This document shows positions 21,283 to 62,719 of a stretch of DNA of 64,000 bases, in pieces. The stretch is taken from the sequence record OK018184. One strand, given 5' to 3'. The notes beneath the pieces were generated by a model. It saw only the letters and a list, made by a program, of their open reading frames with translations. It was not told where the DNA came from and searched no databases. The stretch comes from Shigella phage CT01. A program made the position numbers and the translations under genes. The stretch's first letter is position 1, and the number at the start of each line of letters is the position of its first letter.

Positions 21283-22214
21283 TAGAATGCTCCTTGAAAA
21301 ATATTATCACCACTAGTAGGTCTATTATACAAATACTCTATGCCACCAGGTTTAATATAGTTCCATGTCTGAAACGGATGTGTCTGATATGGATGATATA
21401 GATGATTATTAGGTCTATTATACAAATACTCTATGCCACCAGGTTTAATATAGTTCCATGTCTGAAACGGATGTGTCTGATATGGATGATATAGATGATT
21501 ATAAGGATTTAATCCAGGCGTTCTCCAGGTAGTGTTCCAAGGAAAAGAATCGTTTTTAACCATCTTCTCAATTAAATCTTTTATAGCTTTTTCACTATCA
21601 AAACTTTCTTTATTTTCCTTCGGCGAAAAAAGCTTATTTTCTACATCATTCCATGTATAAACTCGCTGCGCAGTTTTTGGAATATTGTCACGCTCTCCTC
21701 GAGCCATCCAATAAACAGGAACATTTAATATTTCACTCGCATGATCGCAGTGATGAGCGAGATCGTCAATATAACAAATTACGTTATATTTCTCTTTTGC
21801 CTTTTTGAACAGCTCTTCTTTTGAAGAATCATGACCACACATCATTACTTCCGAGAAAGCACCAGGAAAAAGAGCATTCAAATTAAATTGACGATTCAAC
21901 AGAGCGTCAATAGAATCACCCAATGCTGTAACAGCTACAAAATTATAATCTTCTTTTAATTTGTTAATTACACACAGGGCATCTTTATACGGAGACAAGT
22001 AACGAATAAAATCTGAACGATTGTATTTTTCAATTAACTTGACGCCAAGTTCTTCGTCACAATTAAAGAGTTTACCCGGAGAAATAAATTTCTCATCTTG
22101 GATCATTTTTAAAATATGTTCTAATGGAAGATTATATTTCTGAGCAAAATAAGGAAGGCCTGATTGCCAGCTTAAACATACTCCATCAATATCAGTTAAA
22201 ATAGTTGGCTTCAT
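21282..22214 (-). CDS. HAD-like hydrolase-family protein (30.2 position) with in-frame 31-aa C-terminal duplication
   Basis: N-terminal DIDGV (DxDG) HAD motif; C-terminus repeats NHLYHPYQTHPFQTWNYIKPGGIEYLYNRP twice. Confidence 0.6.
   Translation of the reverse strand: MKPTILTDIDGVCLSWQSGLPYFAQKYNLPLEHILKMIQDEKFISPGKLFNCDEELGVKLIEKYNRSDFIRYLSPYKDALCVINKLKEDYNFVAVTALGDSIDALLNRQFNLNALFPGAFSEVMMCGHDSSKEELFKKAKEKYNVICYIDDLAHHCDHASEILNVPVYWMARGERDNIPKTAQRVYTWNDVENKLFSPKENKESFDSEKAIKDLIEKMVKNDSFPWNTTWRTPGLNPYNHLYHPYQTHPFQTWNYIKPGGIEYLYNRPNNHLYHPYQTHPFQTWNYIKPGGIEYLYNRPTSGDNIFQGAF
21317..21502. repeat. perfect 93-bp tandem duplication (2 copies) inside the 30.2 ORF
   Basis: 21317-21409 is identical to 21410-21502. 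Confidence 0.9.
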
Positions 22215-22675
22215 AGAGAGTCTCTTAATAGGTTTAACACATCAATAAATTCAGCTTCGGTTAGTATTGTATCATCTTTTGTTAGACCACTAGCCATGCT
22301 GTGCTTCAAAACTTTTCCTTTCGAGGCTTGTAATGCATCACGAAAGCCCCTGTTTTGGATTGCTGCTTCAAAATATGCATTTGTGTATAATTCTTTCCAT
22401 GCTGGAGAGTATCTTGAAAATGGAACTCCAAGCCAAAAGAGGGTCCCACGGTCCTGAGCTCTAGCATAAGACCTTCCAGCTTGTTGGGCGGCAAGCCCGG
22501 ACATCCCAAATATACGTCTTTGCTGTTCAACATTTTTCACCTTACATCCTTGGAGGAATCCTTCGAGACCTCCAAATTGGATACCATCCATAACGAAAGG
22601 CCATTGAGCGAAATTGCTTAATGCACATGATGGCCATCTAAAATTGCTTCTTATCTCTAGCTCAGACATTTTCAA
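22211..22675 (-). CDS. hypothetical protein at the 30.3 position
   Basis: 154-aa ORF. Confidence 0.55.
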   Translation of the reverse strand: MKMSELEIRSNFRWPSCALSNFAQWPFVMDGIQFGGLEGFLQGCKVKNVEQQRRIFGMSGLAAQQAGRSYARAQDRGTLFWLGVPFSRYSPAWKELYTNAYFEAAIQNRGFRDALQASKGKVLKHSMASGLTKDDTILTEAEFIDVLNLLRDSL

Positions 22676-22868
22676 TACTTATAATTTCAACATCAGCCCA
22701 ATGACCATAGCAAGGAAGACGAAATTCAACTGGCCAGTTAGGGTCCTTTTCTAATATAATAGACTTAACTTGTGGTTCTTCATGTTCATCGGTATACGGA
22801 CCTTTATATGTTACTTTATATGTGACCTTAATGTACTGAATTCCAAAAATCTTATTAATTATATTCAT
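22662..22868 (-). CDS. hypothetical small protein
   Basis: 68-aa ORF in the tightly packed minus-strand array. Confidence 0.45.
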   Translation of the reverse strand: MNIINKIFGIQYIKVTYKVTYKGPYTDEHEEPQVKSIILEKDPNWPVEFRLPCYGHWADVEIISIENV

Positions 22869-23062
22869 ACTAATTCCTTTAATCCATAGATAGGAGATAA
22901 TTCATCGCCCATACGAAGGTCTTCATTTCCATCTACCCAAGAAACAATATAAGCTTCTTTTATTTGAACGTCTCTCCATTTAAATGCAGGCAAAACCTTA
23001 GAAATTAATCCAGGTATACCGACTCCCTTTAATTCAACAGTTTGACCCAAAAAGAATTTCAT
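22865..23062 (-). CDS. hypothetical small protein
   Basis: 65-aa ORF, ATGA-coupled. Confidence 0.45.
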   Translation of the reverse strand: MKFFLGQTVELKGVGIPGLISKVLPAFKWRDVQIKEAYIVSWVDGNEDLRMGDELSPIYGLKELV

Positions 23063-23400
23063 TAGAACCTCATCTGAAATCCGTGCGATTTAACATTACC
23101 ACCACCAATGTCAGAAATATTAATTTCACGCGCAATTGAAGGGTCAATGTCAATTTCACGATTAAGTTTAGTGATAGCTAAAGTATCACGCCCATTTACA
23201 GTACGGAACTCTAAAGGGCAGACTACATTAACATAGTTTTTAATCGATTCACTAGTAGGCTGCAAATGAGCAGGAAGGTCTTTAGGCGCCTTAGAGAAAA
23301 CCACTTCACAGAAATTTTTGCGGGTATCAAAATAAGTAGTCATAAACATAACATTTTCCTCAGTAAGGGGCCAAAGCCCCTCATTTATTTTAAATATCAA
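23062..23400 (-). CDS. hypothetical protein
   Basis: 112-aa ORF. Confidence 0.5.
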   Translation of the reverse strand: MIFKINEGLWPLTEENVMFMTTYFDTRKNFCEVVFSKAPKDLPAHLQPTSESIKNYVNVVCPLEFRTVNGRDTLAITKLNREIDIDPSIAREINISDIGGGNVKSHGFQMRF

Positions 23401-23755
23401 ATTCGTTAAGAACTACATCAAAGATTGCTTCAAGATGCTCAGGTTTAGCTCTGTTACTCAGAATATGACGAATCCAAGTTTTAACCAAAAGCTTGCGATT
23501 AACGCCATTCCAGCAAGGATGAGTCCCTAAATCGCGTTCACGGAAATCATCATCCAGAGCGATTTTAAAGTTGGAACCTTCCATCGTGATTGAAACCGTG
23601 ATACCGTTTTCAAATCGCATATAAACGTAGTTAGGAGTCATATACTGTTCAATTTCGCATACTGATCCATTTTGATGTTTCCAAAGGCAGATAGTATCAA
23701 TAGAACCTGCAATACCGTTAGAAACATATTTACGTTCAAAGTTGATGTAGTTCAT
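23390..23755 (-). CDS. hypothetical protein
   Basis: 121-aa ORF. Confidence 0.5.
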   Translation of the reverse strand: MNYINFERKYVSNGIAGSIDTICLWKHQNGSVCEIEQYMTPNYVYMRFENGITVSITMEGSNFKIALDDDFRERDLGTHPCWNGVNRKLLVKTWIRHILSNRAKPEHLEAIFDVVLNEFDI

Positions 23756-23823
23756 TTTTATTCTCCGAGATGTTTAATTGCGGTACAGGTATATAATATC
23801 ATATCCTGTACCAAAGTAAACAA

Positions 23824-24156
23824 TTATTTTACTACTTTCCAGTGCTGCATGTCAAGTTTGCCAACTTTTTTCATCTTCTCAATTAAGCGTTCGGCACGTT
23901 GGCGAGCTGTAACATAATACCATTCACCTAATTCATTTTGTTCAATTTTTCCAACGATTACTGTATTCAATTCATAAATCCAACCAGTAAAGAAATTATG
24001 AACTTGAATTGTAAAGGTGAAATCTGTTCCCATACCTTCTGTTGTTTCTACTTCAATAATATCACCTTCAACTGCCATTAAGAACCACATAGTTTCATCA
24101 TATTTACCGTTGAAGCATTTAGTTTTAACTGTAGCGTTCAGATTAATCGTTTTCAT
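23824..24156 (-). CDS. hypothetical protein
   Basis: 110-aa ORF with an early-promoter block upstream. Confidence 0.5.
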   Translation of the reverse strand: MKTINLNATVKTKCFNGKYDETMWFLMAVEGDIIEVETTEGMGTDFTFTIQVHNFFTGWIYELNTVIVGKIEQNELGEWYYVTARQRAERLIEKMKKVGKLDMQHWKVVK

Positions 24157-24183
24157 TTTATTCTCCTTTGTTTGTATGAGATA

Positions 24184-24212
24184 ATACTATCACAAAGGAA
24201 CTATACTGTAAA
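24184..24212 (-). promoter_or_regulatory. sigma70-type early promoter (-35 GTTTAC, 17-bp spacer, -10 TAGTAT) on the minus strand
   Basis: Same -35/-10 architecture as the conserved block at 58127, 61774, 41372 and 61262. Confidence 0.4.
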
Positions 24213-24229
24213 CAACTTTGTGTAATCTT

Positions 24230-24262
24230 TGGAAAATAAAAAAGGACTCCCGAAGGAGTCCT
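24230..24262 (-). terminator. hairpin ggactcc-cgaa-ggagtcc with T-run downstream of the 72-aa gene
   Basis: Perfect 7-bp stem preceded by an A-run on the plus strand. Confidence 0.55.
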
Positions 24263-24266
24263 CAAC

Positions 24267-24485
24267 TTATGCTTTCTGCTTACCAAAACGAGAAGCATCA
24301 TCTCGAAGAACCGCACGTGCTCGGCGCATGATCTTCTCAACAGTTTGATTGATACGAGAGTTCGACCCACGCTTGTAACCAGCGCGTTTAGAATCACCAA
24401 CTTTCTTTTCAACTGCTTTCTTTGCTTTAGCTTGTTTTGCCATTATAAATTCTCTTTTAAATGAAAATGCAGGACTTATTGGCAT
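24267..24485 (-). CDS. small basic protein at the 30.9 position
   Basis: 72 aa, lysine/arginine rich. Confidence 0.5.
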   Translation of the reverse strand: MPISPAFSFKREFIMAKQAKAKKAVEKKVGDSKRAGYKRGSNSRINQTVEKIMRRARAVLRDDASRFGKQKA

Positions 24486-24660
24486 TGCCTGCGCAAGCCC
24501 TCAAGGGGAACATAGGTTTTTGAATATTTAACGACCAGGATAACCATAAACCCGTCATCATACCTTATAGCTCTTATCTGTTGTACACCGTTAGCTTAAA
24601 GGTTCCGGGTTCGATTTCTCGAGGATAAGATATATACTAAGGCAGTGAATCTCCAATAAA

Positions 24661-24909
24661 TTACTTCAGTGTTACCACAAAGTGACGAACTGCTTTTCGT
24701 GCAGCAGAAGCCAGAGGCTTAGCATACTTAAGTTCATCTTTTTCCTGGAGCTCAGCAGCTAATGCAGTTTGAGCAGGATTCAGATGTTTGAAATAACGCA
24801 GGATTTCAAGAGCTTCGGCTTCAACATCAATAGATGCGCCATAGTTTTCGTGACCATTATTCCATGCGTTTCGTTGCAGTTCAAGAGCGTGTTGTAATTG
24901 TTTAATCAT
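24661..24909 (-). CDS. rIII: rIII lysis-inhibition accessory protein
   Basis: 82 aa, MIKQLQHALELQRNAWNNGHENYG...; T4 rIII length and position next to gene 31. Confidence 0.8.
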   Translation of the reverse strand: MIKQLQHALELQRNAWNNGHENYGASIDVEAEALEILRYFKHLNPAQTALAAELQEKDELKYAKPLASAARKAVRHFVVTLK

Positions 24910-25056
24910 TTAAAAATTCTCGTTAGAGATTAAAACTCGGTAGTCACGTTCTTCTGAATTTCATCTTCTTTCGACAGATCTCTCAGTTGTAGACTACCAC
25001 GTAGAATTGTTCGGTTAACTTATTATTCCGACACCCAATTCATATTATTATTTATA

Positions 25057-25392
25057 TCACTTATAAAGACACGGAATAGCTTTATAGTGACAAGTAACGA
25101 ATTTTTGTTTAATTTCTTTTGGCTGCTTAAGACCCAGAGCTACAAAAGGATGCGGAACGTTTCGAATTTGACCAACTGGAAGAGAAGTCAAATCACCAAC
25201 TTCACAGAAACCTTCAGGAACATCAGGACCAACAGAGTGAACTACACACAGTTCAGGAACTTCACCTTGAACACGTTTACCGATAATGAGTCCTGATTCT
25301 GTAACTTCTTCATCACCGGCTTGCGCAGGTTCAGAAACTAAAATAACATATTCACCGACAGCACGAATTGGTAGCTGTTGTACTTCAGACAT
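25057..25392 (-). CDS. 31: co-chaperonin gp31 (GroES analogue)
   Basis: 111 aa, T4 gp31 length and position. Confidence 0.85.
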
Positions 25393-25448
25393 CGTTTTTC
25401 CTTTTTGTTAACAGATGAATTAATAATAACAAATAATTCTTAAAGCAT

Positions 25449-25757
25449 TTATTTACCAATAAATTGAAGCAAATGCTCAACTTTCATACCATTAACGGAA
25501 ATCAATTTGTCAATAGAAAAACCTCGCCATGCACCAAGCTCAACATCAAATACTGGAATCATATCAGTAGATTCTTTCCGAGTAGATTCAGTCAATTTAC
25601 CGGTTTGCATGGTTGGCATAAAGTCTGCATCACGAGTACCTTTCATAGTACGAATAGTACCATCAGACTTTTCAAAAACCACGTTTGAAATACCCATGGA
25701 CAATTTAGTTTTCAAAATTTCACGAATTGCTACTTTTTGTTCAGTCGTCAGTTTCAT
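25449..25757 (-). CDS. hypothetical protein
   Basis: 102-aa ORF. Confidence 0.5.
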   Translation of the reverse strand: MKLTTEQKVAIREILKTKLSMGISNVVFEKSDGTIRTMKGTRDADFMPTMQTGKLTESTRKESTDMIPVFDVELGAWRGFSIDKLISVNGMKVEHLLQFIGK

Positions 25758-25994
25758 TTATTTACCTATCACAGTTTTAATATGGGTTGTTCCACGTTCT
25801 TTAAGAGTGGAAAGCAATTTTTGACATTTTTCTAAATCAGACTTCCAACTATGCGGTCTATCAATACAAACCCAGTTTGACTTATAATACTGCTTCCATT
25901 TAGAGAAAAAATACTTCTTATACTCTACAGCAAATGAAATGTTCTCGTTGGAATAAGAACTAATTGCTGTGAGTTGTACCAAACGAAATTTCAT
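25758..25994 (-). CDS. hypothetical protein
   Basis: 78-aa ORF. Confidence 0.45.
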   Translation of the reverse strand: MKFRLVQLTAISSYSNENISFAVEYKKYFFSKWKQYYKSNWVCIDRPHSWKSDLEKCQKLLSTLKERGTTHIKTVIGK

Positions 25995-27143: not shown

Positions 27144-27664
27144 GTTGATCCTAGCTCCTTACTTTCAACGTTTTTAACTAATTTGACAGAAACTAATTCA
27201 GCATCTTGGGTAATCATTACCGGGCCTTCTTCATACTCTTCAAGATATTCTAGAGCTTTCTTTTTAGCTTCTTCCTTCGTATCAGTTTGAGCATAGATAT
27301 AAAACATACAACCAGTAATACCTACTACTTTCCACTTAATTTCTTTATCAGTTTTAATTTCAAATTTACTGATAGAGTCATCTTTTTGAACTTCTTCGAA
27401 AAAATAATATTCTGACATATAAGTAATTGAAAATAGCGGGCTATCTTTATAAGATTCGCCCATTACATCAACAGCTTTATACCAGCAATCGTCAATTTCG
27501 CGTTTAATGCTAATAACATTTTTCGCAGGATCTATTTTTACTTTAAATGAATTTTCCCCAATAAACTGAGCAATTCGTTTATTAGCCCCGCAAGTTTCAT
27601 TAAAAATATCTTTATATCCAGCTTTAAAGCGATAAACCTTATCTTCTTCAAACCATTCGCTCAT
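27137..27664 (-). CDS. hypothetical protein
   Basis: 175-aa ORF. Confidence 0.5.
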   Translation of the reverse strand: MSEWFEEDKVYRFKAGYKDIFNETCGANKRIAQFIGENSFKVKIDPAKNVISIKREIDDCWYKAVDVMGESYKDSPLFSITYMSEYYFFEEVQKDDSISKFEIKTDKEIKWKVVGITGCMFYIYAQTDTKEEAKKKALEYLEEYEEGPVMITQDAELVSVKLVKNVESKELGSTC

Positions 27665-27726
27665 TTCAATTTCCTCATTTGTTTTGGTAGAGCTATAATA
27701 TCACAACTCTACCTTAAAGTAAACTA

Positions 27727-28002: not shown

Positions 28003-28004
28003 AT

Positions 28005-28395: not shown

Positions 28396-29616
<1,221 letters not shown>

Positions 29617-32662: not shown

Positions 32663-32665
32663 TCC

Positions 32666-33817
32666 TTAAAAGTATTTTTTAAAACTCATCATAACTTTAT
32701 CATCAACATCATTATCAATCTGTGCAACAAGGTAAGATGACAGTTCTACTTCTTGTGGCGCGGATTGAACATTATCAGAATTAAGGTATTCACGAATCCA
32801 AGGATATGGATGTTTAACCGGAGCATCGGTAATTGGGCATGGAAGACCGCACTGTTTCATACGAGATACAGTTAAGTAATCAATAAAGCTCCACATGCTA
32901 TTTGTATTTAATCCAGGAACATCGCCATCTTTAAATAAATGAACTGCCCAATCTTTTTCTTGGCGGTTAACTTCCATGAAAATATTAACTGCTTCTTGTT
33001 CACACTCTTGAGCAATTTTAACCCATTCGCCGCCATCAGTACCGGATTGAAGTTGACGAATAATATATTGGGTGCCTTTAAGGTGAAGCTGCTCATCACG
33101 TGCAATGAACTTCATAATCTTGGCATTACCTTCCATGATTTCCATGTTCTTATGGAAGTTAAAGGTACATGCAAAAGATACATAAAAACGAATAGCTTCT
33201 AAGGCATTAATAACGTGCAAACAGAGGTAAAGAGATTTCATTAGTGCTCGTTTAGCTTCGGCTTCTTGTTTAATAGCTCGATTTAAACGAAAAACAGCAT
33301 CAGGAGATTCTTTAGCTAGTTCTGTAAATTCTTTAGCATTTTCCCATTCACGGGTTTTAGTCAGAACATCATCATAATAGCGACCGATAGATTCAGCACG
33401 TTTCATGATAGCTTCATCTAGTACAATCTCATCAAATACCTTCGATGGATCAGTATAAAGATTTCGCATGATATGGGTATATGAACGGCTATGAATAGTT
33501 TCACTAAAAGTCCATGTAGCAACCCATGTATCAAGACTTGGGTCTGAAATTAATGACATAAGTACTGCAGACGGTGCACGACCCTGAATGCTATCTAGAA
33601 GTGATTGATACTTCAGGTTGTTAGTAAAAATATCTTGCTGATACTGAGGAAGCTTGTTAAATTGTGCAGCATCCATCATTAAGTTTACTTCTTCAGGACG
33701 CCAGAAAAATGACAACTGCTTTTCGGTTAAATCTTCAAAAACTTTATGACGTTGAATATCATAACGCGCAATACCAAGACCTGAACCGAAGAACATAGGT
33801 TCTTTTAAAACATTCAA
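32666..33817 (-). CDS. nrdB: ribonucleotide reductase small subunit NrdB, intron-less
   Basis: 383 aa continuous ORF with the di-iron ligand region; no intron or I-TevIII ORF. Confidence 0.9.
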   Translation of the reverse strand: MNVLKEPMFFGSGLGIARYDIQRHKVFEDLTEKQLSFFWRPEEVNLMMDAAQFNKLPQYQQDIFTNNLKYQSLLDSIQGRAPSAVLMSLISDPSLDTWVATWTFSETIHSRSYTHIMRNLYTDPSKVFDEIVLDEAIMKRAESIGRYYDDVLTKTREWENAKEFTELAKESPDAVFRLNRAIKQEAEAKRALMKSLYLCLHVINALEAIRFYVSFACTFNFHKNMEIMEGNAKIMKFIARDEQLHLKGTQYIIRQLQSGTDGGEWVKIAQECEQEAVNIFMEVNRQEKDWAVHLFKDGDVPGLNTNSMWSFIDYLTVSRMKQCGLPCPITDAPVKHPYPWIREYLNSDNVQSAPQEVELSSYLVAQIDNDVDDKVMMSFKKYF

Positions 33818-33947
33818 CTAAATTTTCCTTATCATCAGAACCTCCCATACATCTAGGGATTATATGATGTGTCTCTTTATATTCTGATAAAGATTCCCGA
33901 GCCTGAGCTCGGGAAATTAGGTCATTATAGATTTTTTGATAATTCAT
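33759..33947 (-). pseudogene. mobE: truncated HNH homing-endonuclease remnant (mobE-like)
   Basis: 62-aa ORF with HNH motif ETHHIIPRCMGGSDDKENLV that runs into the nrdB start; lies in the nrdA-nrdB gap where T4 has mobE. Confidence 0.5.
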
Positions 33948-34729: not shown

Positions 34730-34877
34730 ATCTTGATAGTCTAACAGGTTATCAAGTGCACGTACTTGAACTTCTGCTAATTCATTAATTTTATCTTGGT
34801 CTTGCCAATCGAAGTTATCCAACACAAATGCAGATAACGTGCACAATCCAATTTCAGCATCAGGACTATTCACATCA
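34730..34877. repeat. 148-bp direct repeat of nrdA sequence, left copy flanking the insert
   Basis: Identical to 35737-35884; encodes DVNSPDAEIGLCTLSAFVLDNFDWQDQDKINELAEVQVRALDNLLDYQD. Confidence 0.9.
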
Positions 34878-35736
34878 GTTCGACGCGTTGTTCTTGAAGA
34901 CGGATCACATACTTGGACTGCTAAACAAGATTTTAATGGCGCAGTTAACTTTAACTCTACTGTTAACCTTAATAACACTACCACATTTAAAACAGAAGTT
35001 AAATTCCGCTCGTTGAATGCATTCCGTATGTATGGCGGAAAATTTGGTACATTTTTACGTAATGATGGAGAGAGTCTTTATATTCTTTCCACCGACGAAG
35101 ATGATCAAGATGGAAACTTTAATACAAATAGACCTTTCCGTTATGAATTAAGAACTGGTGATGTTACTTTGGGTGGTGTTAGTGGTGCTAACGTTTTAAA
35201 ATTAAAACGTGATTCTCTCACCGCATTTTTTGGCGGTGATATTAACATGAAAGGCACGATGACTTTTGACGCCGGACGTTTAGGGTCACGAGATTATTTT
35301 AAATTTAACCATTGGGGTGATAGCAATAACGCTCGTGATAACATCATCCAGTTAGAAGATAGTCAAGGCGCTCATTTTTCCACTGAACGTACTTTAGCGA
35401 CTGGTGCAATTAAAACTCGTTTCTTTGGCGAAACATTCACTGATGGTACATTATACCTAAATCAGATGAATAATAGCTCTGAACGATTCCATATCAATAA
35501 TTGGGGAAATTCAGAAGTTGGTCGCGCGGCAGTGATGGAAGTCGGTGATTCCAAAGGTTATCACTTCTATACGGAACGCAGGACAGATAACAGTTTGACA
35601 TTTGATGTTGCTGGCACTTTTACCGTGCATGGACCTACCGGGATCACTATCAAAAACTCTGTTGGTGCTCGCCACATCTGGTTTAAAGATGATAGCGATG
35701 CAGAAAAGGCTGACAGTTTAATTACCTTCCGCAGTG
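34878..35736 (+). other. inserted segment derived from long tail fibre gene 37 (835 bp of gene 37 sequence plus 24-bp filler)
   Basis: 34876-35712 matches the gene 37 copy at 52582-53074 and also contains the 344 bp absent from that copy; 35713-35736 has no match in the window. Confidence 0.85.
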
Positions 35737-35884
35737 ATCTTGATAGTCTAACAGGTTATCAAGTGCACGTACTTGAACTTCTGCTAATTCATTAATTTTA
35801 TCTTGGTCTTGCCAATCGAAGTTATCCAACACAAATGCAGATAACGTGCACAATCCAATTTCAGCATCAGGACTATTCACATCA
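35737..35884. repeat. 148-bp direct repeat of nrdA sequence, right copy
   Basis: Identical to 34730-34877. Confidence 0.9.
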
Positions 35885-41349: not shown

Positions 41350-41371
41350 CAGCAGTATTGCCGATAGTTGT

Positions 41372-41472: not shown

Positions 41473-42381
41473 TTAAAGGTCATTCAAAAGGTCATCCAGA
41501 TCCGTGTCATCAGCACTAGATGAACTGCCAGAGCTTGAGCTCATAAAATCATCTTCAGTTTTTGTTTTGAAGTCATCAACATTGAATGCATCCAAATCAT
41601 CAGCAACTTTATCAGCTTTCTTAGCGGCAGTTGCTGCGGCACCGCCCATAGCAGCAGTTCCCATAACTTGACTGAACTTAGTGCTCAGTTCTTCAAACGA
41701 TTTGAATTTATCTTTAGAAGTCATTTCAGAAAGGTCAACCATTTGTTCGAACAGTTCTTTCTGGAAAGATTCATCATCAATGTTTGGAATCGCAGATTGA
41801 TTCAGGAATTTAGATTCATCGTAGTTACTAAAACCAGAAACTTGTTTAACTTTCAGTACAAAGTTAGCACCTTCCCACGGACAAGTTACATCAACCGGAG
41901 TTTCACCCATTTCAACATCAACTGCAATCATTGCATTGATTTTATCCCAGATTTTCTTACCAAAACGGTATTTAAATACTTTACCTTCATTTTCTGGAGC
42001 AGCTGGGTCTTTTACTACAAGAATGTTAGCCCAGTAAGAAGTTTTACGTTTAACAAGACCGTACTCTTTATTGTCAGTGTTATACAAATCATTTTTACTG
42101 ATGTACTGACATACTGGACAAGAATCGTAATCACCGTGGGTAGATGAACAGTTTTCAATATACCATTTACCATTTTTCTTGAAACCGTGATTTACAAGAA
42201 TTGCGAATGGTGCTTGTTCATCATTTTTAGACGGAAGAAAACGAATTACTGCTTGACCGTTACCCGCATTATCGAGTTTCAGTTTCCACTCGCCTTTATC
42301 TTCAGAAGAAAAACTACCTTTATTTCCAGCCAGTTTAGCCATTTGTGCAGCGAGTTCAGCAGTAGATTTACGTTTAAACAT
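41473..42381 (-). CDS. 32: single-stranded DNA-binding protein gp32
   Basis: 302 aa; [17 protein letters not shown]..., acidic C-terminus [12 protein letters not shown]; matches recalled T4 gp32. Confidence 0.9.
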
Positions 42382-42628
42382 TTTTATTTCCTTTTTAATT
42401 TAATTAACAGTTGGTGCTATGACGATGTATGACCTCATAGCTGGTCAGTGAGATAATTATAATCTATTTATAATAAGCAATTAATACTTACAAGATTTCA
42501 CAGTTTCAATGAAAACACTTTTGGCTTTCTGTGAATCAATATTTAAAATTTTTCTATAAGCCTTTAACTTTATAGAATAATTATTCCAGACTAAATTATC
42601 AGTCTGTTCATCATGTTTATCAATTATA
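42091..42628. repeat. 538-bp direct repeat, copy 1 (gene 32 5' end, its leader, and the gene 59 3' end)
   Basis: Identical to 42692-43229 (offset 601 bp). Confidence 0.9.
42481..42628 (-). pseudogene. duplicated 3' fragment of gene 59 (last 48 codons)
   Basis: Encodes [48 protein letters not shown], identical to the gp59 C-terminus. Confidence 0.7.
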
Positions 42629-42691
42629 ATTCGAACTGATCTGTGTTTGTGCATTTGGGCATATGTTTGCGCGCGTAAAGCAGGCTGGTCG
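42629..42691. other. 63-bp unique spacer between the two 538-bp repeat copies
   Basis: No match found elsewhere in the window by eye. Confidence 0.6.
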
Positions 42692-42982
42692 ATTTTTACT
42701 GATGTACTGACATACTGGACAAGAATCGTAATCACCGTGGGTAGATGAACAGTTTTCAATATACCATTTACCATTTTTCTTGAAACCGTGATTTACAAGA
42801 ATTGCGAATGGTGCTTGTTCATCATTTTTAGACGGAAGAAAACGAATTACTGCTTGACCGTTACCCGCATTATCGAGTTTCAGTTTCCACTCGCCTTTAT
42901 CTTCAGAAGAAAAACTACCTTTATTTCCAGCCAGTTTAGCCATTTGTGCAGCGAGTTCAGCAGTAGATTTACGTTTAAACAT
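42692..42982 (-). pseudogene. duplicated 5' fragment of gene 32 (first 97 codons) fused to junction sequence
   Basis: Track ORF 42620..42982 begins with the gp32 N-terminus and then diverges into spacer-encoded residues. Confidence 0.7.
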
Positions 42983-43229
42983 TTTTATTTCCTTTTTAAT
43001 TTAATTAACAGTTGGTGCTATGACGATGTATGACCTCATAGCTGGTCAGTGAGATAATTATAATCTATTTATAATAAGCAATTAATACTTACAAGATTTC
43101 ACAGTTTCAATGAAAACACTTTTGGCTTTCTGTGAATCAATATTTAAAATTTTTCTATAAGCCTTTAACTTTATAGAATAATTATTCCAGACTAAATTAT
43201 CAGTCTGTTCATCATGTTTATCAATTATA
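42692..43229. repeat. 538-bp direct repeat, copy 2
   Basis: Identical to 42091-42628. Confidence 0.9.
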
Positions 43230-50403: not shown

Positions 50404-51096
50404 ATGGCTGATTTAAAAGTAGGTTCAACTGTGGGTGGATCTGTCATTTGGCATCAAGGAAATTTTCCATTGAATTCAGCCGGTGACGATGTACTCTACA
50501 AATCATTTAAAATATATTCAGAATATAATAAACCGCAGGCAGCTGATAACGATTTCGTTTCTAAAGCTAATGGTGGTACTTACACCGGTCCAATTACTAT
50601 TAATTACGGGGTAAATAGTTATCTTCAATTAAGTAATAATGAAACCCCTATCCGAATTCGTTCTGGTGGCGGCACCGGTAATACTCTTGTAATTGGTGGA
50701 TCTTCTGGTGGTATTAGTTTTAGACCTGCAGGTAGTGAAATCACTACTGGACAAATTAGTTTTAGACCTGCAGGTAGTGAAATCACTACTGGACAAATTA
50801 CTATTACGCCAGAAGGTTTGACAACATTCACCAAAGCTGTAAAGGCTCCATCTGTAACTGTTACATCTACTCCTTCCGCAGCATCAGATGCTACTCGTAA
50901 AGATTATGTTGATGGAGCAATAAATACTGTTACAGCAAATGCAAACTCTAGAGTGTTACGATCTGGTGACACCATGACAGGAAATTTAACTGCGCCAAAC
51001 CTTTTTTCACAGAATCCTGCATCTCAACCTTCACACGTTCCACGATTTGACCAAATCGTAATTAAGGATTCTGTTCAAGATTTCGGCTATTATTAA
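50404..51096 (+). CDS. 36: long tail fibre distal connector gp36 (with internal 14-aa tandem duplication)
   Basis: 230 aa; N- and C-terminal regions match recalled T4 gp36; [14 protein letters not shown] occurs twice. Confidence 0.8.
50713..50796. repeat. perfect 42-bp tandem duplication (2 copies) inside gene 36
   Basis: attagttttagacctgcaggtagtgaaatcactactggacaa repeated back to back. Confidence 0.9.
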
Positions 51097-51104: not shown

Positions 51105-53835
51105 ATGGCTACTTTAAAACAAATACAATTTAAAAGAAGCAAAACCGCAGGTCAACTTCCTGCTGCTTCAGTATTAGCCGAAGGTGAATTGGCTATTAAT
51201 TTAAAAGATAAAACAATTTTCACAAAAGATGACTCAGGCAATGTTATAGAATTAGGTTTAAAATATGGAGGAACAATTGATGGTTCTTTAACTGTTAATG
51301 GAAATATAATTGGAAATTTAACAGGTAACGCTGCAACTGCAACGAAATTAAAAACAGCACGAAAAATTAATGGTATATCCTTTGATGGGTCAAAAGATAT
51401 CACGCTAACTCCATCCGACATAAATGTCAATAGCACAACGTTTATAAAAAATAACGGCGAATTACCTGTTGATGCTAATTTAGATACGTATGGGCCTGTT
51501 GAAGAATATCTTGGAGTTTGGTCGAAAGCAACTTCAACCAACGCTCAACCAGCAAATAAATTTCCAGAAAACAATGCTGTAGGTGTGCTAGAAGTATTTG
51601 TGGCCGGTCAATTTGCTGGTACTCAGAGATATACAACTAGATACGGAAATGTTTATATTCGTTCCTTGACTGCTACATGGAACGGAGTAAATGGTCCGTG
51701 GAGTGTGTGGCGAAATATTCAATCCGGTACTCGTTCACTGTCAACAACAATTGATCTTAATGATCTAGGAGGTGCTGAACATCTTGGTTTGTGGCGAAAT
51801 AGTTCAAATTCCATTGCTACCTTTGACAGAAATTTCCCAGAAGAGGGGTCGTCAGCTCAAGGTCTTTTGGAAGTATATGAAGGTGGAAACTATTCTCGTA
51901 CACAAAGATATACAACCAGATTTGGTGTTGTTTATACTCGCTGTCTTACTGCTGCGTGGGATGCTTCTGCGCCTAAATGGGGACCGTGGCAACAAGTCGG
52001 TAATGTCACACCGGCGACTTTCTATGACGGAAACCTGAATGATTTTAAAACTCCTGGGTTATATAATATTTTAGGCACTGATGCCGTTATTAATTGTCCT
52101 ACAGGCGAAGGTTTACCAGCCGTTATTGTTGGTTTGCTGGAAGTTAAACAGCGTGCTTCTGGCGGTGCTATTTTCCAAAAATTTACTACTGCCGGAACAG
52201 GTGCAACTACCCGCGATCGTATTTTTGAGCGCGCATATACCGGCGGTGTGTGGGGTGAATGGAACGAAGTATACACATCTTATTCTCTACCAATTACTTT
52301 GGGTATGGGCGGTATTAAATCTAACTTAGCAGAGTTAGACTGGCAAGCATTTGATTTTGTTCCTGGTAGTATGTTTAGCGTTCCTTTGAACAAAATAAAG
52401 AACATGCCAGCTAATATGGATTGGGGTACGATTGACGGAAACTTAATTATGTTTTCTGTTGGTCCTAGCGAGCACACCAGCACAGGACGTACTGTTCAGG
52501 TTTGGCGTGGAACTGTATCCCAGACAAACTATCGTTATTTTGTCGTTCGTGTATTCGGTAATCCAGGGAGTAGAACATGTACAGTTCGACGCGTTGTTCT
52601 TGAAGACGGATCACATACTTGGACTGCTAAACAAGATTTTAATGGCGCAGTTAACTTTAACTCTACTGTTAACCTTAATAACACTACCACATTTAAAACA
52701 GAAGTTAAATTCCGCTCGTTGAATGCAAGGCGCTCATTTTTCCACTGAACGTACTTTAGCGACTGGTGCAATTAAAACTCGTTTCTTTGGCGAAACATTC
52801 ACTGATGGTACATTATACCTAAATCAGATGAATAATAGCTCTGAACGATTCCATATCAATAATTGGGGAAATTCAGAAGTTGGTCGCGCGGCAGTGATGG
52901 AAGTCGGTGATTCCAAAGGTTATCACTTCTATACGGAACGCAGGACAGATAACAGTTTGACATTTGATGTTGCTGGCACTTTTACCGTGCATGGACCTAC
53001 CGGGATCACTATCAAAAACTCTGTTGGTGCTCGCCACATCTGGTTTAAAGATGATAGCGATGCAGAAAAGGCTGTTATCTGGGCTACAGATGAGGGTATT
53101 TTACATATTCGCAATAATCATGAGGGTTCATTTAGTCATCACTTCCAGGGTGCAATGATTAAACTGGAAGGGCGTGTTCCTTATGGTGCAGCAAAAGGGC
53201 TTATTCGAGGCGAGATAGACGGTGGTGCATATGTTGCATGGAGAGACCGCCCTGCTGGTTTGTTGGTTGACTGCCAGAAAAGTATTGACAGTGCTCATGC
53301 TGTTTGGAAAGCGGTTGATTGGGGGCGTCAATATATCGCTGCTATGGACGTTCATTGTCCGGGTGATGGTAATAATACTGCGGCAGCGGTTCTTCATGTT
53401 CAGGCTGCTGATTATCAATTCCATGCAAGCGGAGAATTTCATGCCACTGGTAACGGGAACTTTAACGATGTGTATATTCGTTCCGATGGTCGTCTGAAAA
53501 TTAATGTTGAAGATTATACAGGAAATGCGTTAAGTTTGATCGGCAAACTGAAAGTGAAAACTTACGATAAAGTTAAATCTCTTAAAGACCGTGAAATTAT
53601 CGGTCACGAGATCGGCATTATCGCACAGGATTTACAAGAAATATTACCGGAAGCTGTAAAATCTTCAAAGGTTGGCAATCTTGATAATCCAGACGATGTT
53701 CTGACAATTTCTAACTCTGCTGTGAATGCTCTTTTAATTAAGGCTATTCAGGAAATGAGTAAAGAAATTAAAGAATTGAAAACTCCTTTCTTTACTAAAA
53801 TTGCTCGCAAAATTAGTAAATATTTTAAATTCTAA
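51105..53835 (+). pseudogene. 37: long tail fibre distal subunit gene 37, broken by a 344-bp frameshifting deletion at 52727/52728
   Basis: Two overlapping ORFs in different frames (51105..52748 and 52723..53835); the missing 344 bp is present in the copy inside nrdA at 35022-35365. Confidence 0.8.
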
Positions 53836-57098: not shown

Positions 57099-57439
57099 TT
57101 AAACCATCCTTTAATACGCTGCCACAAAGTTTTCTGTTGAGCTTTGTTAACACCAATTGAGCGAATAACTGGTTGAGATTCCTGGAATTCTTTATAATCA
57201 GCAAGGTAAATTTCGTAAGCTGAATCTGTAAAGGAACTTATCGCTGCCATGAAGTTTTTACGTACACCACCAGGAGCTACTCCGTTAGGTAATTCAGAAT
57301 TTTCACGAATAATTAAATATAACCCAGCTCTAACCTTAACAATAGTTCCAAGATAAGCTCCATGGTACCAGATATCCCACCCCTCTTGAGTGGGTTCTGC
57401 ACAACGACGAAGTTCATTGATAATTTCTAACTTGTTCAT
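57095..57439 (-). CDS. hypothetical protein
   Basis: 114-aa ORF. Confidence 0.5.
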
Positions 57440-57449
57440 TATTTATTCC

Positions 57450-58085: not shown

Positions 58086-58126
58086 TTTCTAATCTCCGTA
58101 ATTCTGTATCAGTAGTTGATAGTTGT

Positions 58127-58156
58127 ATAGTACCACAGTATGCTTTGGTTGTAAAC
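58127..58156 (-). promoter_or_regulatory. conserved early promoter block upstream of motA (-35 GTTTAC, 17-bp spacer, -10 TACTAT)
   Basis: Minus-strand ttttcacaaaacGGTTTACaaccaaagcatactgtggTACTATacaactatc. Confidence 0.5.
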
Positions 58157-58185
58157 CGTTTTGTGAAAAAATTTTAAAATAAAAA

Positions 58186-58205
58186 GGGAGAGCCTCGGCT
58201 CTCCC
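58186..58205 (-). terminator. hairpin gggagagcc-tcg-gctctccc with T-run
   Basis: Perfect 8-9 bp stem preceded by aaaataaaaa on the plus strand. Confidence 0.55.
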
Positions 58206-58210
58206 TAAAA

Positions 58211-58360
58211 TTACTGCATGACTGTGATAACTGTCATGATAACACGTTGAATGCCGAACGCAAGAAGACCTCCTGCTACGGCTGGAACAACACCTAAACC
58301 CGCCAGTAAAATGCTACCAGATACTAATGCCGCGCTTGTAATACCTATGAATGGACTCAT
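58211..58360 (-). CDS. small hydrophobic membrane protein (49 aa), not in the supplied track
   Basis: ATGA overlap with the gene 52 stop; MSPFIGITSAALVSGSILLAGLGVVPAVAGGLLAFGIQRVIM... Confidence 0.4.
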   Translation of the reverse strand: MSPFIGITSAALVSGSILLAGLGVVPAVAGGLLAFGIQRVIMTVITVMQ

Positions 58361-59685
58361 TTGATTTCCTCTAAATCTTTAGTGTATTCGGTAACTACAT
58401 CAGTAGTTTTCCAATATTCGTTTTCTTCTTTCTTAGCTTTAGCTTCTTCAGCAAGTTTCTTTGCTTCGTCGGAAGTCATATGAAAAATATTCATTCCAAC
58501 TAGTTTATCAACATAAGAAGAATACATATCAATTTTAGAAAGTTCTTCAGTCAGTTCTTTGCGAGTTTTACCTTGTACAACAATTTCACCTGAAATCACT
58601 TTCTTAATGAAATGTGCCTTGGCAAAGGCTAAACGAAATGCTGATTCAGTTTCTTTGATTTTGTTATCAATTCGTTTTTGGACATAAGTTTTACGAACTT
58701 CAACGAAGTCTTTAATTAAATCAACTACGTTATCGTAAACTTGTAGTTTTCCTTTCTCGTTGATGACTGTAATATTCTGGGAACGACGCTCAATCAACCC
58801 AAAGTCTTTCATAATTTTTGCATGGCGTTCTTCTTCGTTATCGCTCAAAGAATATTCTTTGCGGAATTTAACTTTAAAGCCAAAACCATGCTCACCGCAA
58901 GCATCATCCCATGTAATGAAGCCTTTATCTTCAAGCGGGTCTAAGATTTTACTCACGTAAGTTTCACGATCATACTTATACGGAATCTCAGTGATATTCA
59001 TTTGAGTTCGTGAAGTAAACTTGTACGTTCCACGAATTTCATATTGACCGTCAATTTCAACGACTTCACCACGAAATTCTGGGAATTCTACCTTCGGTTT
59101 AGTTACTTTCTTTCCTTGAAGAGCTTGTAGTACAGCTTTCTTGACAGAAGAAACGCTATGAGGAAGAATGTAAGTTGCATAACCAGTTGCAATACCGGAA
59201 ACACCATTAAGAAGAACGGTAGGAATAATAGGCAAATAGAAAGCAGGCGGAATGTGTTCTTTATCTTGATGTACCGGAGCATATTCAGTATCTTTATATA
59301 CGCTATAGAAATTTTTACTTACACGAGCAAAAATATAACGACTTGCCGCTGCTTTTTGAACGGTACGAGAACCAAAGTTTCCTTGACCATCTAACAAAGG
59401 AAAGTTATTATTCCAAGTGTTAGCCATCAAAGCCCCCGCATCTTGTGCAGAGTTTTCACCATGATGATATCCAAGGTCAGCTACACCACCTGCAATAGAA
59501 GCAAGTTTGTGAAACTTATCTTTATTTCCTCGCGCCAAATCAAGAGCTCGAGCAATAACAAATCGTTGAACTGGCTTAAATCCATCAATCATATTTGGAA
59601 TAGCACGATTTTCAACCGTGTACATAGCATAAGCCAGTGCTTCATTATCAATGATACTTTTTAAATCGCGATTATTCAGTTGCAT
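58357..59685 (-). CDS. 52: DNA topoisomerase II medium subunit gp52
   Basis: 442 aa, MQLNNRDLKSIIDNEALAYAMYTVENRAIPNMIDGFKPVQRF (GyrA-like, active-site Tyr region). Confidence 0.9.
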   Translation of the reverse strand: MQLNNRDLKSIIDNEALAYAMYTVENRAIPNMIDGFKPVQRFVIARALDLARGNKDKFHKLASIAGGVADLGYHHGENSAQDAGALMANTWNNNFPLLDGQGNFGSRTVQKAAASRYIFARVSKNFYSVYKDTEYAPVHQDKEHIPPAFYLPIIPTVLLNGVSGIATGYATYILPHSVSSVKKAVLQALQGKKVTKPKVEFPEFRGEVVEIDGQYEIRGTYKFTSRTQMNITEIPYKYDRETYVSKILDPLEDKGFITWDDACGEHGFGFKVKFRKEYSLSDNEEERHAKIMKDFGLIERRSQNITVINEKGKLQVYDNVVDLIKDFVEVRKTYVQKRIDNKIKETESAFRLAFAKAHFIKKVISGEIVVQGKTRKELTEELSKIDMYSSYVDKLVGMNIFHMTSDEAKKLAEEAKAKKEENEYWKTTDVVTEYTKDLEEIK

Positions 59686-59822
59686 AAATTTACCATACTA
59701 GTGAATGTAGTGCCATAATAACATCAGAAATGAAAAGCACGACTTGAATTAATCCGAACATTACTCCATAATATAGCGCTACCAATAAAGTAGCAAGGGC
59801 TACCGAGTAGCCCAAGATTTTC

Positions 59823-59981
59823 TTAATCATTAGTAGATAACAACACAAATGTTAAATATGCACACATACCCTGGGCTAAAGCTTGTGAAAACACACTGCT
59901 AGCATCAATACAGATAGTTAAAACACATGCTACTATCCAACAAATAAATGAAATAACTCCTAATAATTTTGCGATATTCAT
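59823..59981 (-). CDS. small membrane protein, possibly Ac (acriflavine sensitivity)
   Basis: 52-aa hydrophobic ORF MNIAKLLGVISFICWIVACVLTICIDASSVF...; not in the supplied track. Confidence 0.35.
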   Translation of the reverse strand: MNIAKLLGVISFICWIVACVLTICIDASSVFSQALAQGMCAYLTFVLLSTND

Positions 59982-60068
59982 ATTTTCCTCACTGGCGTCC
60001 GAAGACGCCTTTAGTTTTAAGATTGTTACGATAGAACTGCATTACATGTTCGTTATGGAAATTACTCA

Positions 60069-60524
60069 TTAGTATGCCTGCAAAACAAATTTAAAGTTAT
60101 CAGCCAACATACGATTCATTTCTTCAAGCGTTTGATACTCAGAATGATGATTACGAGTAAACGCTAAAGCTAACTGACCTTTTCCAAATCCCGTCGTCAG
60201 AGGTTTCATCTTAGAAGCAGATAGATAAAATACCGTGTATGGAACATTGTTATTTGCAATAGTACGCGCAAGCTGAGATCGACGCTGGCGAATATGACTT
60301 AGAACTGCACTGAACCCTTGCTTAGAACGCTGATTACCTACATAAAATCGTGCAGATACACACGGACTATCAAATGGACCACCAAATTTGCTCACTAAAA
60401 AGTAAAATCCAGGGTTAGACAAAATGTCTTTATGTGGAGTTCCAAAAACCCATTCACCGCCCTTGATTGTACCAATAACAGTTGCGCCTGCATTATTCAA
60501 ATCAGTAACAGTCATATATTTCAT
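60069..60524 (-). CDS. ndd: nucleoid disruption protein Ndd
   Basis: 151 aa, same length and context as T4 Ndd. Confidence 0.8.
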
Positions 60525-60583
60525 GTTATTTTCCTCTAATTATTTTCTACTCCAAGGCCGCATGAATACACACGGCCGATAAA

Positions 60584-60799
60584 TTAATCGTCGCAGTCGA
60601 CGCTCAATTCCCAGAACTCTTCTACAGTATAAGTTTCAGTATCATTTTCAATACAGAAACGTTCATTACTGTTATTTGCTAAAGTAGCGTTAACTGTCAT
60701 TTTCTCGCTAGTGCTTTTAAGAGGTGAAATACGAATTAACTGATCACCATTATCTAAACAGAAAATTTCACCGACCTTTACATCTTTAAAAATTTTCAT
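60584..60799 (-). CDS. hypothetical protein
   Basis: 71-aa ORF. Confidence 0.45.
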   Translation of the reverse strand: MKIFKDVKVGEIFCLDNGDQLIRISPLKSTSEKMTVNATLANNSNERFCIENDTETYTVEEFWELSVDCDD

Positions 60800-60914
60800 A
60801 ATTCACCTCAAGGAGTATAAAATCCAAACGCAGTTGTTGACCATCCCATCCAGTATGGGAAATTTGCACCAATGTAAAACATAAGAATATAAAACCAACC
60901 ACTCAGCAAATTCA

Positions 60915-61133
60915 TCATTTTACACCATTCCAAATTGTTTCAACCACAGATTTTAAGCCATTTTGATGAATGTCCATTCCGACAACTGCCATCAAATAAA
61001 TTCCAACTACAACTGAACCCAAGGCGAAAATCAACATGAAAATGAATAAAGCTGGAAAAATATTATCGAAAAACCATTCAATAAATGTAAAAGCACTGCG
61101 TTTACGCTTCATATTTTCCTCACATAAATCCAA
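60915..61133 (-). CDS. small membrane protein
   Basis: 72-aa ORF with a hydrophobic core. Confidence 0.45.
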   Translation of the reverse strand: MDLCEENMKRKRSAFTFIEWFFDNIFPALFIFMLIFALGSVVVGIYLMAVVGMDIHQNGLKSVVETIWNGVK

Positions 61134-61329
61134 AGTAAGCGTTTAATACATCAATCATTAAAACGATTGGGAATATACTCAAAACTACTAGTATTATAAC
61201 TACATTCCATATAGCTTTAACAATCTTTTTCATTTTCTGTTCCTCCGTAGTTGATAGGGTAATAATACCACAGAGGAACAGTCTTGTAAACAACTTTTTA
61301 AAAATATTCGTAATAAATGTGAATGCCAA
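61120..61329 (-). CDS. small membrane protein; real start probably the internal Met at 61233 (37 aa)
   Basis: An early-promoter block at 61262-61290 lies inside the long ORF; ggagg SD precedes the internal ATG. Confidence 0.4.
   Translation of the reverse strand: MAFTFITNIFKKLFTRLFLCGIITLSTTEEQKMKKIVKAIWNVVIILVVLSIFPIVLMIDVLNAYFGFM
61262..61290 (-). promoter_or_regulatory. early promoter block (-35 GTTTAC, 17-bp spacer, -10 TATTAT)
   Basis: Minus-strand GTTTACaagactgttcctctgtggTATTAT. Confidence 0.4.
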
Positions 61330-61475
61330 TCACTACTGCCGAAACTTGCGCAACCCACCACGCACAAGCAATAAGTACAGAATTAAAAATTTTCATAATA
61401 ACCTCATCACAAAAGTAAATGTTAAACAAATTAATGGAATACTAATTAACCAAATAAAACACCACCACAATGAAC

Positions 61476-61751
61476 TCATAGTTCAATCTCAGCGATTTTC
61501 ATTTCATTACTATTAATAGCCGCTTTAAGACTATCTGAAAGAATTACATCCCAGTGGTCATTCATATGACCATTAACTAAACGTGTAATTTCTTCGGGAG
61601 TTGAAAAATAAGGCGTATCAGACTCCCAATGCGATAGTCCCAAGCGAGTATAAATCATACCTTCATCATCGCTAGAATATTCAACTGACACAAACTCATC
61701 AGTTATTTTATGTTTAGCGTAATAAAATTTAAATTTCATTTTATTCTCCAA
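61476..61751 (-). CDS. hypothetical protein
   Basis: 91-aa ORF with a promoter block upstream. Confidence 0.5.
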   Translation of the reverse strand: MENKMKFKFYYAKHKITDEFVSVEYSSDDEGMIYTRLGLSHWESDTPYFSTPEEITRLVNGHMNDHWDVILSDSLKAAINSNEMKIAEIEL

Positions 61752-61773
61752 ATCTGTATCAGTTGATAGTTGT

Positions 61774-61803
61774 ATAGTACCACAGTCCTTGTGGTATGTA
61801 AAC
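61774..61803 (-). promoter_or_regulatory. conserved early promoter block (-35 GTTTAC, 18-bp spacer, -10 TACTAT)
   Basis: Minus-strand tttcacaaaacaGTTTACataccacaaggactgtggTACTATacaactatc. Confidence 0.45.
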
Positions 61804-61820
61804 TGTTTTGTGAAAATTTT

Positions 61821-62378
61821 TTAAATGGAAAGATACCATCCGTTGTAGTTGCTTTTTCTTACAACCTTACGAAGGTCTTCTCTATCACCGACGAACTTCG
61901 GAGTGTACTGGATGACACCTGGATGAATTTCTTTAGTGTTGAATATAATTATACAGTCAGCGACTTGATGATTCAGAATGGGCCCTAGATTTATTCCAGA
62001 ACCGTATGGATACTCTCCGCTGCATCCGGTTGTTACAGAAATCCAACGTGAGTCAGTTTGGTGTGTCTTAACTTCTACGCGAATCCCGCAGTATCTTGGA
62101 TGCGCCAATACATCCCATGCGTATGTATACGGGTCATTAACATCCTCTTGGCCTTTGTTAACATACCCGCTTAGCCAATCTGCTACAAAAAACTCTGCGT
62201 ACACCGCGATACGGCATCTTTCGATAACTTCTGCTTTATCCTGATTTGGATTTTGTTTTAAAGAGTATCTTGCTGTATCAGCAATTTTGACCTTCATTTC
62301 ACTAGTCAAGTCACTGTTCGATAGGGTAAATGTCGGAATCTGAAATAGTCTCTGTAAACCCGGATTCGTTTTCTGCAT
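61821..62378 (-). CDS. denB: endonuclease IV (DenB)-like protein
   Basis: 185 aa, T4 denB length and position between ndd and rIIB; identity by synteny and length only. Confidence 0.6.
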   Translation of the reverse strand: MQKTNPGLQRLFQIPTFTLSNSDLTSEMKVKIADTARYSLKQNPNQDKAEVIERCRIAVYAEFFVADWLSGYVNKGQEDVNDPYTYAWDVLAHPRYCGIRVEVKTHQTDSRWISVTTGCSGEYPYGSGINLGPILNHQVADCIIIFNTKEIHPGVIQYTPKFVGDREDLRKVVRKSNYNGWYLSI

Positions 62379-62719
62379 TAAACTTTCCTTTTACGTCGGA
62401 ATCACTGATATTCATACAATAAATCATAACTTCCCTTAAAACAAAAGGGCCGAAGCCCCTTATTTTATTTGAATTGTGCAATTCTTTTCTCTATCTTGCT
62501 GTATCAGCAATTTTGACCTTCATTTCACTAGTCAAGTCACTGTTCGATAGGGTAAATGTCGGAATCTGAAATAGTCTCTGTAAACCCGGATTCGTTTTCT
62601 GCATTAAACTTTCCTTTTACGTCGGAATCACTGATATTCATACAATAAATCATAACTTCCCTTAAAACAAAAGGGCCGAAGCCCCTTATTTTATTTGAAT
62701 TGTGCAATTCTTTTCTCTA
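62266..62719. repeat. perfect 226-bp tandem duplication (2 copies) spanning the denB 5' end, its upstream region with terminator, and the 3' end of the 64-aa gene
   Basis: 62266-62491 is identical to 62492-62717; boundaries ambiguous by 2 bp. Confidence 0.9.
62446..62468 (-). terminator. hairpin gggc-cgaa-gccc plus T-run; further copies at 62672-62694 and 62903-62925
   Basis: aaaagggccgaagccccttattttatttgaattg occurs three times. Confidence 0.5.

Follow-up and report, generated by a model that had tools for sequence, protein, structure and literature searches.

Introduction

The perfect repeats described here lie in a 64,000-nucleotide (nt) stretch of the genome of Shigella phage CT01 (hereafter, the window), and two described systems stand closest to them. 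One is the partial diploids of the T4 rII region studied by Weil, Parma and Symonds, which reportedly carry head-to-tail copies with short or no homology at the junction and with intact flanking genes. These classical duplications are said to be single, kilobase-scale, strongly selected and rapidly segregating. CT01, in contrast, has five small perfect copies, together with filler sequence and a gene 37 frameshift that would be lethal.

The other is the false duplication or misjoin of genome assemblies (Kelley & Salzberg 2010, PMC2864568; Ko et al. 2022, PMC9516828). As in CT01, the copies are identical and adjacent, and some of them are parted by foreign sequence, as in the 'depth-gaps'. Wrong gap filling is described as leaving unsupported sequence between false duplicates, and assembly error as inserting part of one gene falsely into another (PMC9516828). 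In the false-duplication studies, as in CT01, such a fragment leads to split and extra gene calls. The material differs: those studies dealt with diploid vertebrate assemblies in which haplotype divergence was the main cause, whereas CT01 is a haploid 168-kb phage with terminal overlaps of 42–538 bp.

The window is a verbatim slice of GenBank record OK018184.1 (168,362 bp). The original prediction for this DNA had noted five perfect duplications and a reciprocal insertion and deletion in a T4-like backbone, and had offered three readings: recovery from heavy DNA damage or recombination, a mutator or engineered strain, and a chimeric assembly. Judging from the deposited sequence and its relatives, we consider it probable (about 85%) that the structures are an assembly or finishing artefact of OK018184.1, in which overlapping pieces would have been joined unmerged, one small piece misplaced and one inverted.

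Results

CT01 and its relatives

We compared the window with Shigella phage SF2-1 (PQ571308.1), with the phages EcNP1, ECO07P4 and DCP2, and with five Logan contigs from unrelated runs. SF2-1 is the closest record in the phage collection, with 99–100% nucleotide identity across most of the window. The T4-like backbone of the original prediction is evident, at about 99% identity to SF2-1 and about 95% to T4-derived records. Over the whole window, identity to many Tequatrovirus records is 95–99%, as expected of a member of this genus. The gene order is that of T4, from the gp30 ligase through gp34–38 to rIIB and rIIA, both in the window and in SF2-1, and the first 19.9 kb of the window are colinear with SF2-1. 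CT01 is most likely an ordinary T4-like (Tequatrovirus) phage, very near SF2-1. A literature search found no primary paper on CT01. No source of the CT01-specific alleles (for example, those of gp34 and gp32) was found in Logan or ENA.

Exact repeats

Repeats were detected by a self-BLAST of the window followed by exact extension of the copies. The five zero-divergence duplications claimed earlier (93, 42, 226, 148 and 538 bp) were recovered at the same places. The copies of each pair are 100% identical. Three pairs are strictly tandem, and the copies of the other two are parted by filler or by filler plus a misplaced piece. Here and below, features listed without a sign have no strand assigned:

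21317–21409 and 21410–21502: 93-bp tandem repeat, 100% identical, in a 30.2-like open reading frame (ORF) at 21282–22214 (minus strand)
34730–34877 and 35737–35884: 148-bp repeat in nrdA, copies 100% identical
42091–42628 and 42692–43229: 538-bp repeat, 100% identical, with 63 nt between the copies
50713–50758 and 50755–50800, plus strand: tandem repeat with a period of 42, exact over 46 nt, inside gene 36 (50404–51096)
62266–62493 and 62492–62719: tandem repeat with a period of 226, exact over 228 nt

The window contains eight repeats of at least 40 nt at 98% identity or more, versus none in the homologous region of nine relatives (about 274 kb). The number is far above chance and bears out the earlier claim that the density of repeats is excessive.

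The 93-bp duplication adds 31 amino acids (aa) in frame to the 30.2-like ORF. Its 310-aa product (UDY80593.1) occurs in CT01 only, and the duplication is present in 0 of more than 468 related phages, where the region spans 408 bp versus 501 in CT01. The single-copy allele is of the DCP2/EP01 type, and SF2-1 has another indel at this place. The duplication in gene 36 is in frame as well and adds 14 aa; at its joint, identity extends over 4 further nt. As a result, gp36 has 230 aa in CT01 (UDY80642.1, CT01 only) versus 216–218 aa in the relatives, and among the indexed contigs there is no gene on record for the 230-aa product. The 538-bp segment takes in parts of two minus-strand genes, the 3′ end of gene 59 and the 5′ part of gene 32, along with the intergenic region between them. 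Its second copy (42692–43229) yields a truncated gene-32 ORF of 120 aa, which reads into the 63-nt filler between the copies and is deposited as UDY80635.1 of CT01; the full genes 32 and 59 are intact despite the duplication. The 226-bp repeat includes 113 nt from the start of denB, the terminator hairpin of the intergenic region and the 3′ end of the small gene upstream.

Gene 37 and nrdA

The two copies of the 148-bp repeat enclose a piece of another gene, and that gene is itself interrupted:

34876–35712, plus strand: 837-bp fragment of gene 37 (long tail fibre, distal subunit), within nrdA
35713–35736: 24-nt filler between the gene-37 fragment and the second nrdA copy
52726–52727, plus strand: joint in gene 37 where 344 bp are absent, with a 2-nt overlap

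The 837-bp fragment is 100% identical to gene 37 of SF2-1 (L001 12651–11815) and to three Logan contigs, and the ORF on it is UDY80622.1 in the deposit. It shares 146 bp (52582–52727) and 349 bp (52726–53074) with the gene-37 locus. Because the deletion at the locus is 344 bp long, the frame is shifted, and gene 37 as deposited falls into ORFs of 547 aa (51105–52748) and 370 aa (52723–53835); the two halves of gp37 are UDY80643.1 and UDY80644.1. The nrdA gene as deposited is split as well, into ORFs of 345 and 498 aa; the 498-aa ORF, the N-terminal part of NrdA, is UDY80623.1 and reads into the 24-nt filler. Both copies of the 148-bp repeat map to the same nrdA bases of SF2-1 (L001 28388–28238).

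The original prediction saw here a reciprocal insertion and deletion. As a description this stands, with 837 bp in nrdA and 344 bp gone from gene 37, but the insertion and the deletion are not independent of each other, and probably neither took place in the phage. If they were independent, the chance that a random 344-bp deletion falls within the 837-bp donor region would be about 0.003 ((837 − 344)/168,000).

In T4, gene 37 is required for infectious particles. Since gene 37 as deposited is frameshifted, a plaque-purified isolate should not carry the deposited form. The earlier remark that a loss of gene 37 is not tolerable was correct and ranks among the main arguments against a biological origin. 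The essential genes are thus not all whole, as they should be in a viable phage: gene 37 is frameshifted, and the start codon region of nrdB is also gone. Two candidate explanations were dropped. One was a transposon or homing-endonuclease origin of the insert in nrdA, for which supporting features were absent: the flanking repeat is 148 bp long, the insert has no mobility gene, and no inverted repeat is reported at its ends. The other was that all intragenic events are multiples of three, which would point to selection for viability, and it was dropped because the gene-37 deletion is 344 bp.

Repair of the sequence

When positions 35022–35363 are put back between 52727 and 52726, a gene 37 of 3075 nt and 1024 aa without an internal stop is obtained. 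Beginning at nt 1048, the rest of this gene shows 100% identity to SF2-1 and to two Logan contigs and differs from a third by one base. Removal of the second copies and the fillers, together with restoration of this bridge, shortens the window by a net 1,691 nt and gives long blocks colinear with SF2-1, one of them 21,011 bp. The repaired nrdA frame has 756 codons from stop to stop, which fits the 754-aa NrdA of the relatives, and the repaired gp36 and 30.2-like frames have the same lengths as in the relatives. Undoing the joins thus restores both colinearity and intact genes, as would be expected of false duplications.

Uniqueness of the structures to one deposit

It turned out that the ORFs created by the events are exact CT01 proteins in GenBank and occur on no other contig; the structures therefore belong to one deposit. 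For the same reason, we rejected the idea that they were introduced after deposit. The breakpoints are identical whichever relative is used for the comparison, be it SF2-1, EcNP1, ECO07P4, DCP2 or any of the five Logan contigs, and none of these relatives shares a breakpoint. Around six joints, CT01 differs from SF2-1 by 0–1 nt per 500 bp. Comparison with the closest relative had been proposed as a check of the original prediction. SF2-1 is nearly identical to CT01 around most joints and has none of the structures. Unlike CT01, SF2-1 and the other relatives examined have single copies at the joints, a 1024-aa gp37, a 754-aa NrdA and a complete mobE. The remaining length differences from SF2-1 are common to other relatives and represent ordinary polymorphism. 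Two marks of false duplication are accordingly present: the copies are identical and either adjacent or parted by unsupported sequence, and they are absent from independent assemblies of near-identical genomes.

Fillers, the inverted end and the mobE deletion

Four features were absent from the original prediction: the 24-nt filler listed above and the following three:

42629–42691: 63-nt filler between the 538-bp copies
63934–64000: inverted joint in rIIA, with 1 unmatched base followed by a 66-nt perfect inverted copy of 27248–27313
33812–33819: joint of a deletion of about 620 bp, with 5–8 nt of microhomology

Both fillers are unsupported, non-phage sequence. Neither filler continues a neighbouring gene, and neither has a match in the rest of the window or among the tested common adapters. 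Searches of E. coli genomes and of the phage collection gave no source for the 24-nt filler either. The 63-nt filler has a G+C content of 49%, versus about 35% for the phage. It matches mdtD exactly over 27 nt and at 90% over 40 nt, in 5,417 of 5,426 E. coli genomes. By its composition and matches the filler looks bacterial, and it is not identical to E. coli mdtD; Shigella mdtD is presumably not identical to it either. Two scans of genome_contigs gave no match, which is uninformative, since a degenerate 34-nt pattern fitting E. coli mdtD was also unmatched there. In the phage collection, the filler matches only two Campylobacter phage records, MG065686.1 and MG065691.1, in both cases at the record ends. 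These two records may themselves have contaminant ends.

The inverted 66-nt copy (63935–64000) runs off the end of the window, and its joint lies 65 nt from the 3′ end of rIIA. Since the joint is inside rIIA, the record must contain the remainder of this gene at another place. The cd gene has one CT01 accession only, so the inverted piece probably measures less than about 1.3 kb; this estimate was made from identical-protein accession lists, in which most neighbouring proteins are too common to read. The joint at 63934 is absent from viral_contigs.

The deletion of about 620 bp takes most of a mobE-like homing-endonuclease gene, located between nrdA and nrdB, and the first nrdB codons. This joint is unique to CT01, being absent from the phage collection and from viral_contigs alike. 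It may be a genuine deletion or one more piece omitted from the assembly.

Other features of the window

The window also contains a duplication of a different kind:

15152–19306: tandem duplication of alt and alt-like (Alt-like ADP-ribosyltransferase genes), period about 2,095 bp, adjacent full-length genes

These copies share 72–75% identity along most of their length, and a single stretch of 31 nt reaches 94%. The duplication is shared with SF2-1 (gp226 and gp227). Being shared and diverged, it is a genuine, ancient and inherited duplication, in contrast to the zero-divergence copies of CT01.

Two families of short elements recur. Promoter-like elements of about 65 nt (AGTTGATAG..TATAGTACCACAG...TGTAAAC) are intergenic, share 63–83% identity and are found at 41359, 55634, 58114, 61249 and 61761; near 58131, at one of the copies, four Logan contigs of relatives end. 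A terminator-like G+C-rich hairpin followed by a T-run (AAGGGCCGAAGCCCCTTATTTTATTT) is nearly identical downstream of several genes, at 62445–62480 and 62900–62935 and also at 2843 and 23366. The Logan contig L013 starts close to the hairpin copy at about 62474.

Some database records of related sequences also drew attention. T4-like phage proteins, matching exactly or nearly so, are listed under the names of non-host bacteria, for example in a 171,536-bp 'Bacillus cereus' contig (PJZ22098–PJZ22156) and as many partial 'Enterococcus faecalis' proteins (MFP90..., WP_4114...). Their presence in these assemblies is likely to be contamination. In SF2-1, several small T4 early genes have product names that resemble transfer errors, for example 'olfactory receptor-like protein', 'polyprotein', 'flagellar motor protein' and 'terminase large subunit' (a 95-aa ORF).

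Discussion

The anatomy of the window suggests how the deposited sequence could have arisen. In the record, at least nine pieces stand end to end that overlap one another in the true genome, both copies of each overlap having been retained. Every anomaly may be interpreted as a joint of such pieces, and the two fillers sit at piece ends. The untrimmed overlaps would be 93 bp between pieces C1 and C2, 148 bp between C2 and C4, 538 bp between C4 and C5, 42 bp between C5 and C6, and 226 bp between C7 and C8. In this arrangement, C2 would end in 34730–34877, C4 would start with 35737–35884 and end with 42091–42628, and C5 would start with 42692–43229. The small piece C3, made up of 837 bp of gene 37 and 24 nt of junk, would have been put between C2 and C4 instead of between C6 and C7. 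Its overlaps with the end of C6 (146 bp) and the start of C7 (349 bp) make it exactly the bridge that is missing at 52726–52727. A single misplacement of C3 would account both for the nested 'deletion' in gene 37 and for the 'insertion' in nrdA with its flanking 148-bp repeat. A further piece would have been joined at 63934, in the wrong place and in inverted orientation. All this would place the origin of the structures in contig ordering, scaffolding or gap closing, and not in the phage.

What is known of T4 biology points the same way. In the absence of selection, perfect direct repeats of 226–538 bp recombine out of T4 quickly. T4-type phages recombine very actively, so five perfect repeats would need selection to persist. 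Eight or more structural events accompanied by essentially no point change also make a biological origin look unlikely.

Several observations weigh against an assembly artefact. The 93- and 42-bp intragenic duplications are both multiples of three, and genes 32, 59, denB and rIIB are intact, as they would be in a viable phage. These two points are qualified by the fact that tandem copies spanning the end of a gene never destroy it, and by the chance of 1/9 that two lengths are both multiples of three. At the six joints that can be scored, microhomology is 0, 2, 4, 2, 2 and 0 nt, while filler obscures two others. This is a mild excess over chance, with an estimated p of about 0.01–0.02, and is less in keeping with blunt pasting than with real microhomology-mediated events, template-switch chimeras or overlap-seeking joiners. 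Finally, only the joint at 62493 adjoins a natural repeat (a terminator hairpin of 33 nt, also found at 62900), and the other break sites are without such an explanation. The positions of the joints had no link with mosaic boundaries, that is, with changes in similarity to SF2-1.

A real burst of illegitimate recombination or template switching, either in CT01 or in the dominant molecule of its DNA preparation, may also be considered. Such a burst would have produced the tandem duplications and placed an ectopic copy of part of gene 37 in nrdA, gene 37 itself suffering its deletion later, and DNA damage, a replication or recombination mutator, or high-multiplicity passage with helper-complemented defective genomes may be proposed as its cause. 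The microhomology of 2–4 nt at four of the six scorable joints and of 5–8 nt at the mobE deletion is in keeping with it, as are the two in-frame duplications and the fact that the essential genes 32 and 59 are whole, while the broken nrdA and rIIA are dispensable in T4. However, the frameshift in gene 37 should be lethal, and the 344 bp missing from gene 37 would have to lie, with overlapping flanks, within the ectopic copy by two coincident events, with the low chance calculated above. No T4 mechanism is known to us by which a 148-bp target duplication would arise together with a 24-nt filler. With only 90% identity to mdtD of E. coli and, presumably, of Shigella, the 63-nt filler does not come from the stated host. 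Moreover, the burst has left no matching point divergence from SF2-1, no relative has any of the events, and the long perfect repeats should be unstable in T4. We consider such a burst very improbable. The more specific conclusion, that CT01, or a defective genome dominating its lysate, is truly rearranged by template switching, carrying short bacterial DNA captured at a joint and, in nrdA, a silent partial gene-37 cassette that could recombine with the interrupted gene 37 to restore or vary the tail fibre, deserves less credence again.

Between these two in credibility, and also very improbable, is an artefact that arose earlier, in the library. Chimeric molecules, formed by template switching during polymerase chain reaction (PCR) or multiple displacement amplification (MDA) or by ligation with contaminating bacterial DNA, would have been taken up by a greedy assembler or gap filler at thin coverage. 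The excess of microhomology and the mdtD-like bacterial fragment within one joint agree with this, and the one inverted joint is of a type common among MDA chimeras. The duplicated lengths, at most about 540 bp, are on the scale of library inserts, and those of 146 and 148 bp on the scale of reads. Yet chimeric molecules are individually rare and would not normally win the consensus, and the geometry of the gene-37 'bridge piece' is simpler as a misplaced contig. This explanation departs from the misjoining of overlapping pieces solely in which step went wrong. Least credible of all, and hardly to be entertained, is a deliberately engineered strain, for example one with a tail-fibre donor cassette in the dispensable nrdA and a deletion in gene 37. 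A gene-37 segment with flanks of 146 and 349 bp does resemble a cassette with homology arms, and nrdA is a permissive site. But the window has no marker, vector, recombination-site or designed sequence, and the fillers match no tested adapter. The cassette is wild-type and identical to the relatives, there is no engineering rationale for an inverted joint or for four tandem duplications unrelated to each other, and the record is named and annotated as an ordinary isolate. Thus, among the three readings offered originally, the chimeric assembly fits the anatomy, with its overlapping pieces, bridge, fillers and repair, whereas recovery from damage or recombination and a mutator or engineered strain do not.

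Should the structures nevertheless be real, CT01 would be a notable case of genome instability, with its five stable perfect repeats and its ectopic tail-fibre cassette. On the assembly reading, OK018184.1 would contain about 1.7 kb of spurious sequence in the window, and the value of the finding is that of a data-quality flag. The affected products would be UDY80622.1, a false 'hypothetical protein', UDY80635.1, a false truncated gene-32 ORF, and UDY80643.1 and UDY80644.1, from the split gene 37; they are already in nr and in protein clusters. The CT01 record already serves as the closest relative in comparative work (PMC13602300). Comparisons of tail fibres and host range that use gp36 or gp37 of CT01 would be misled.

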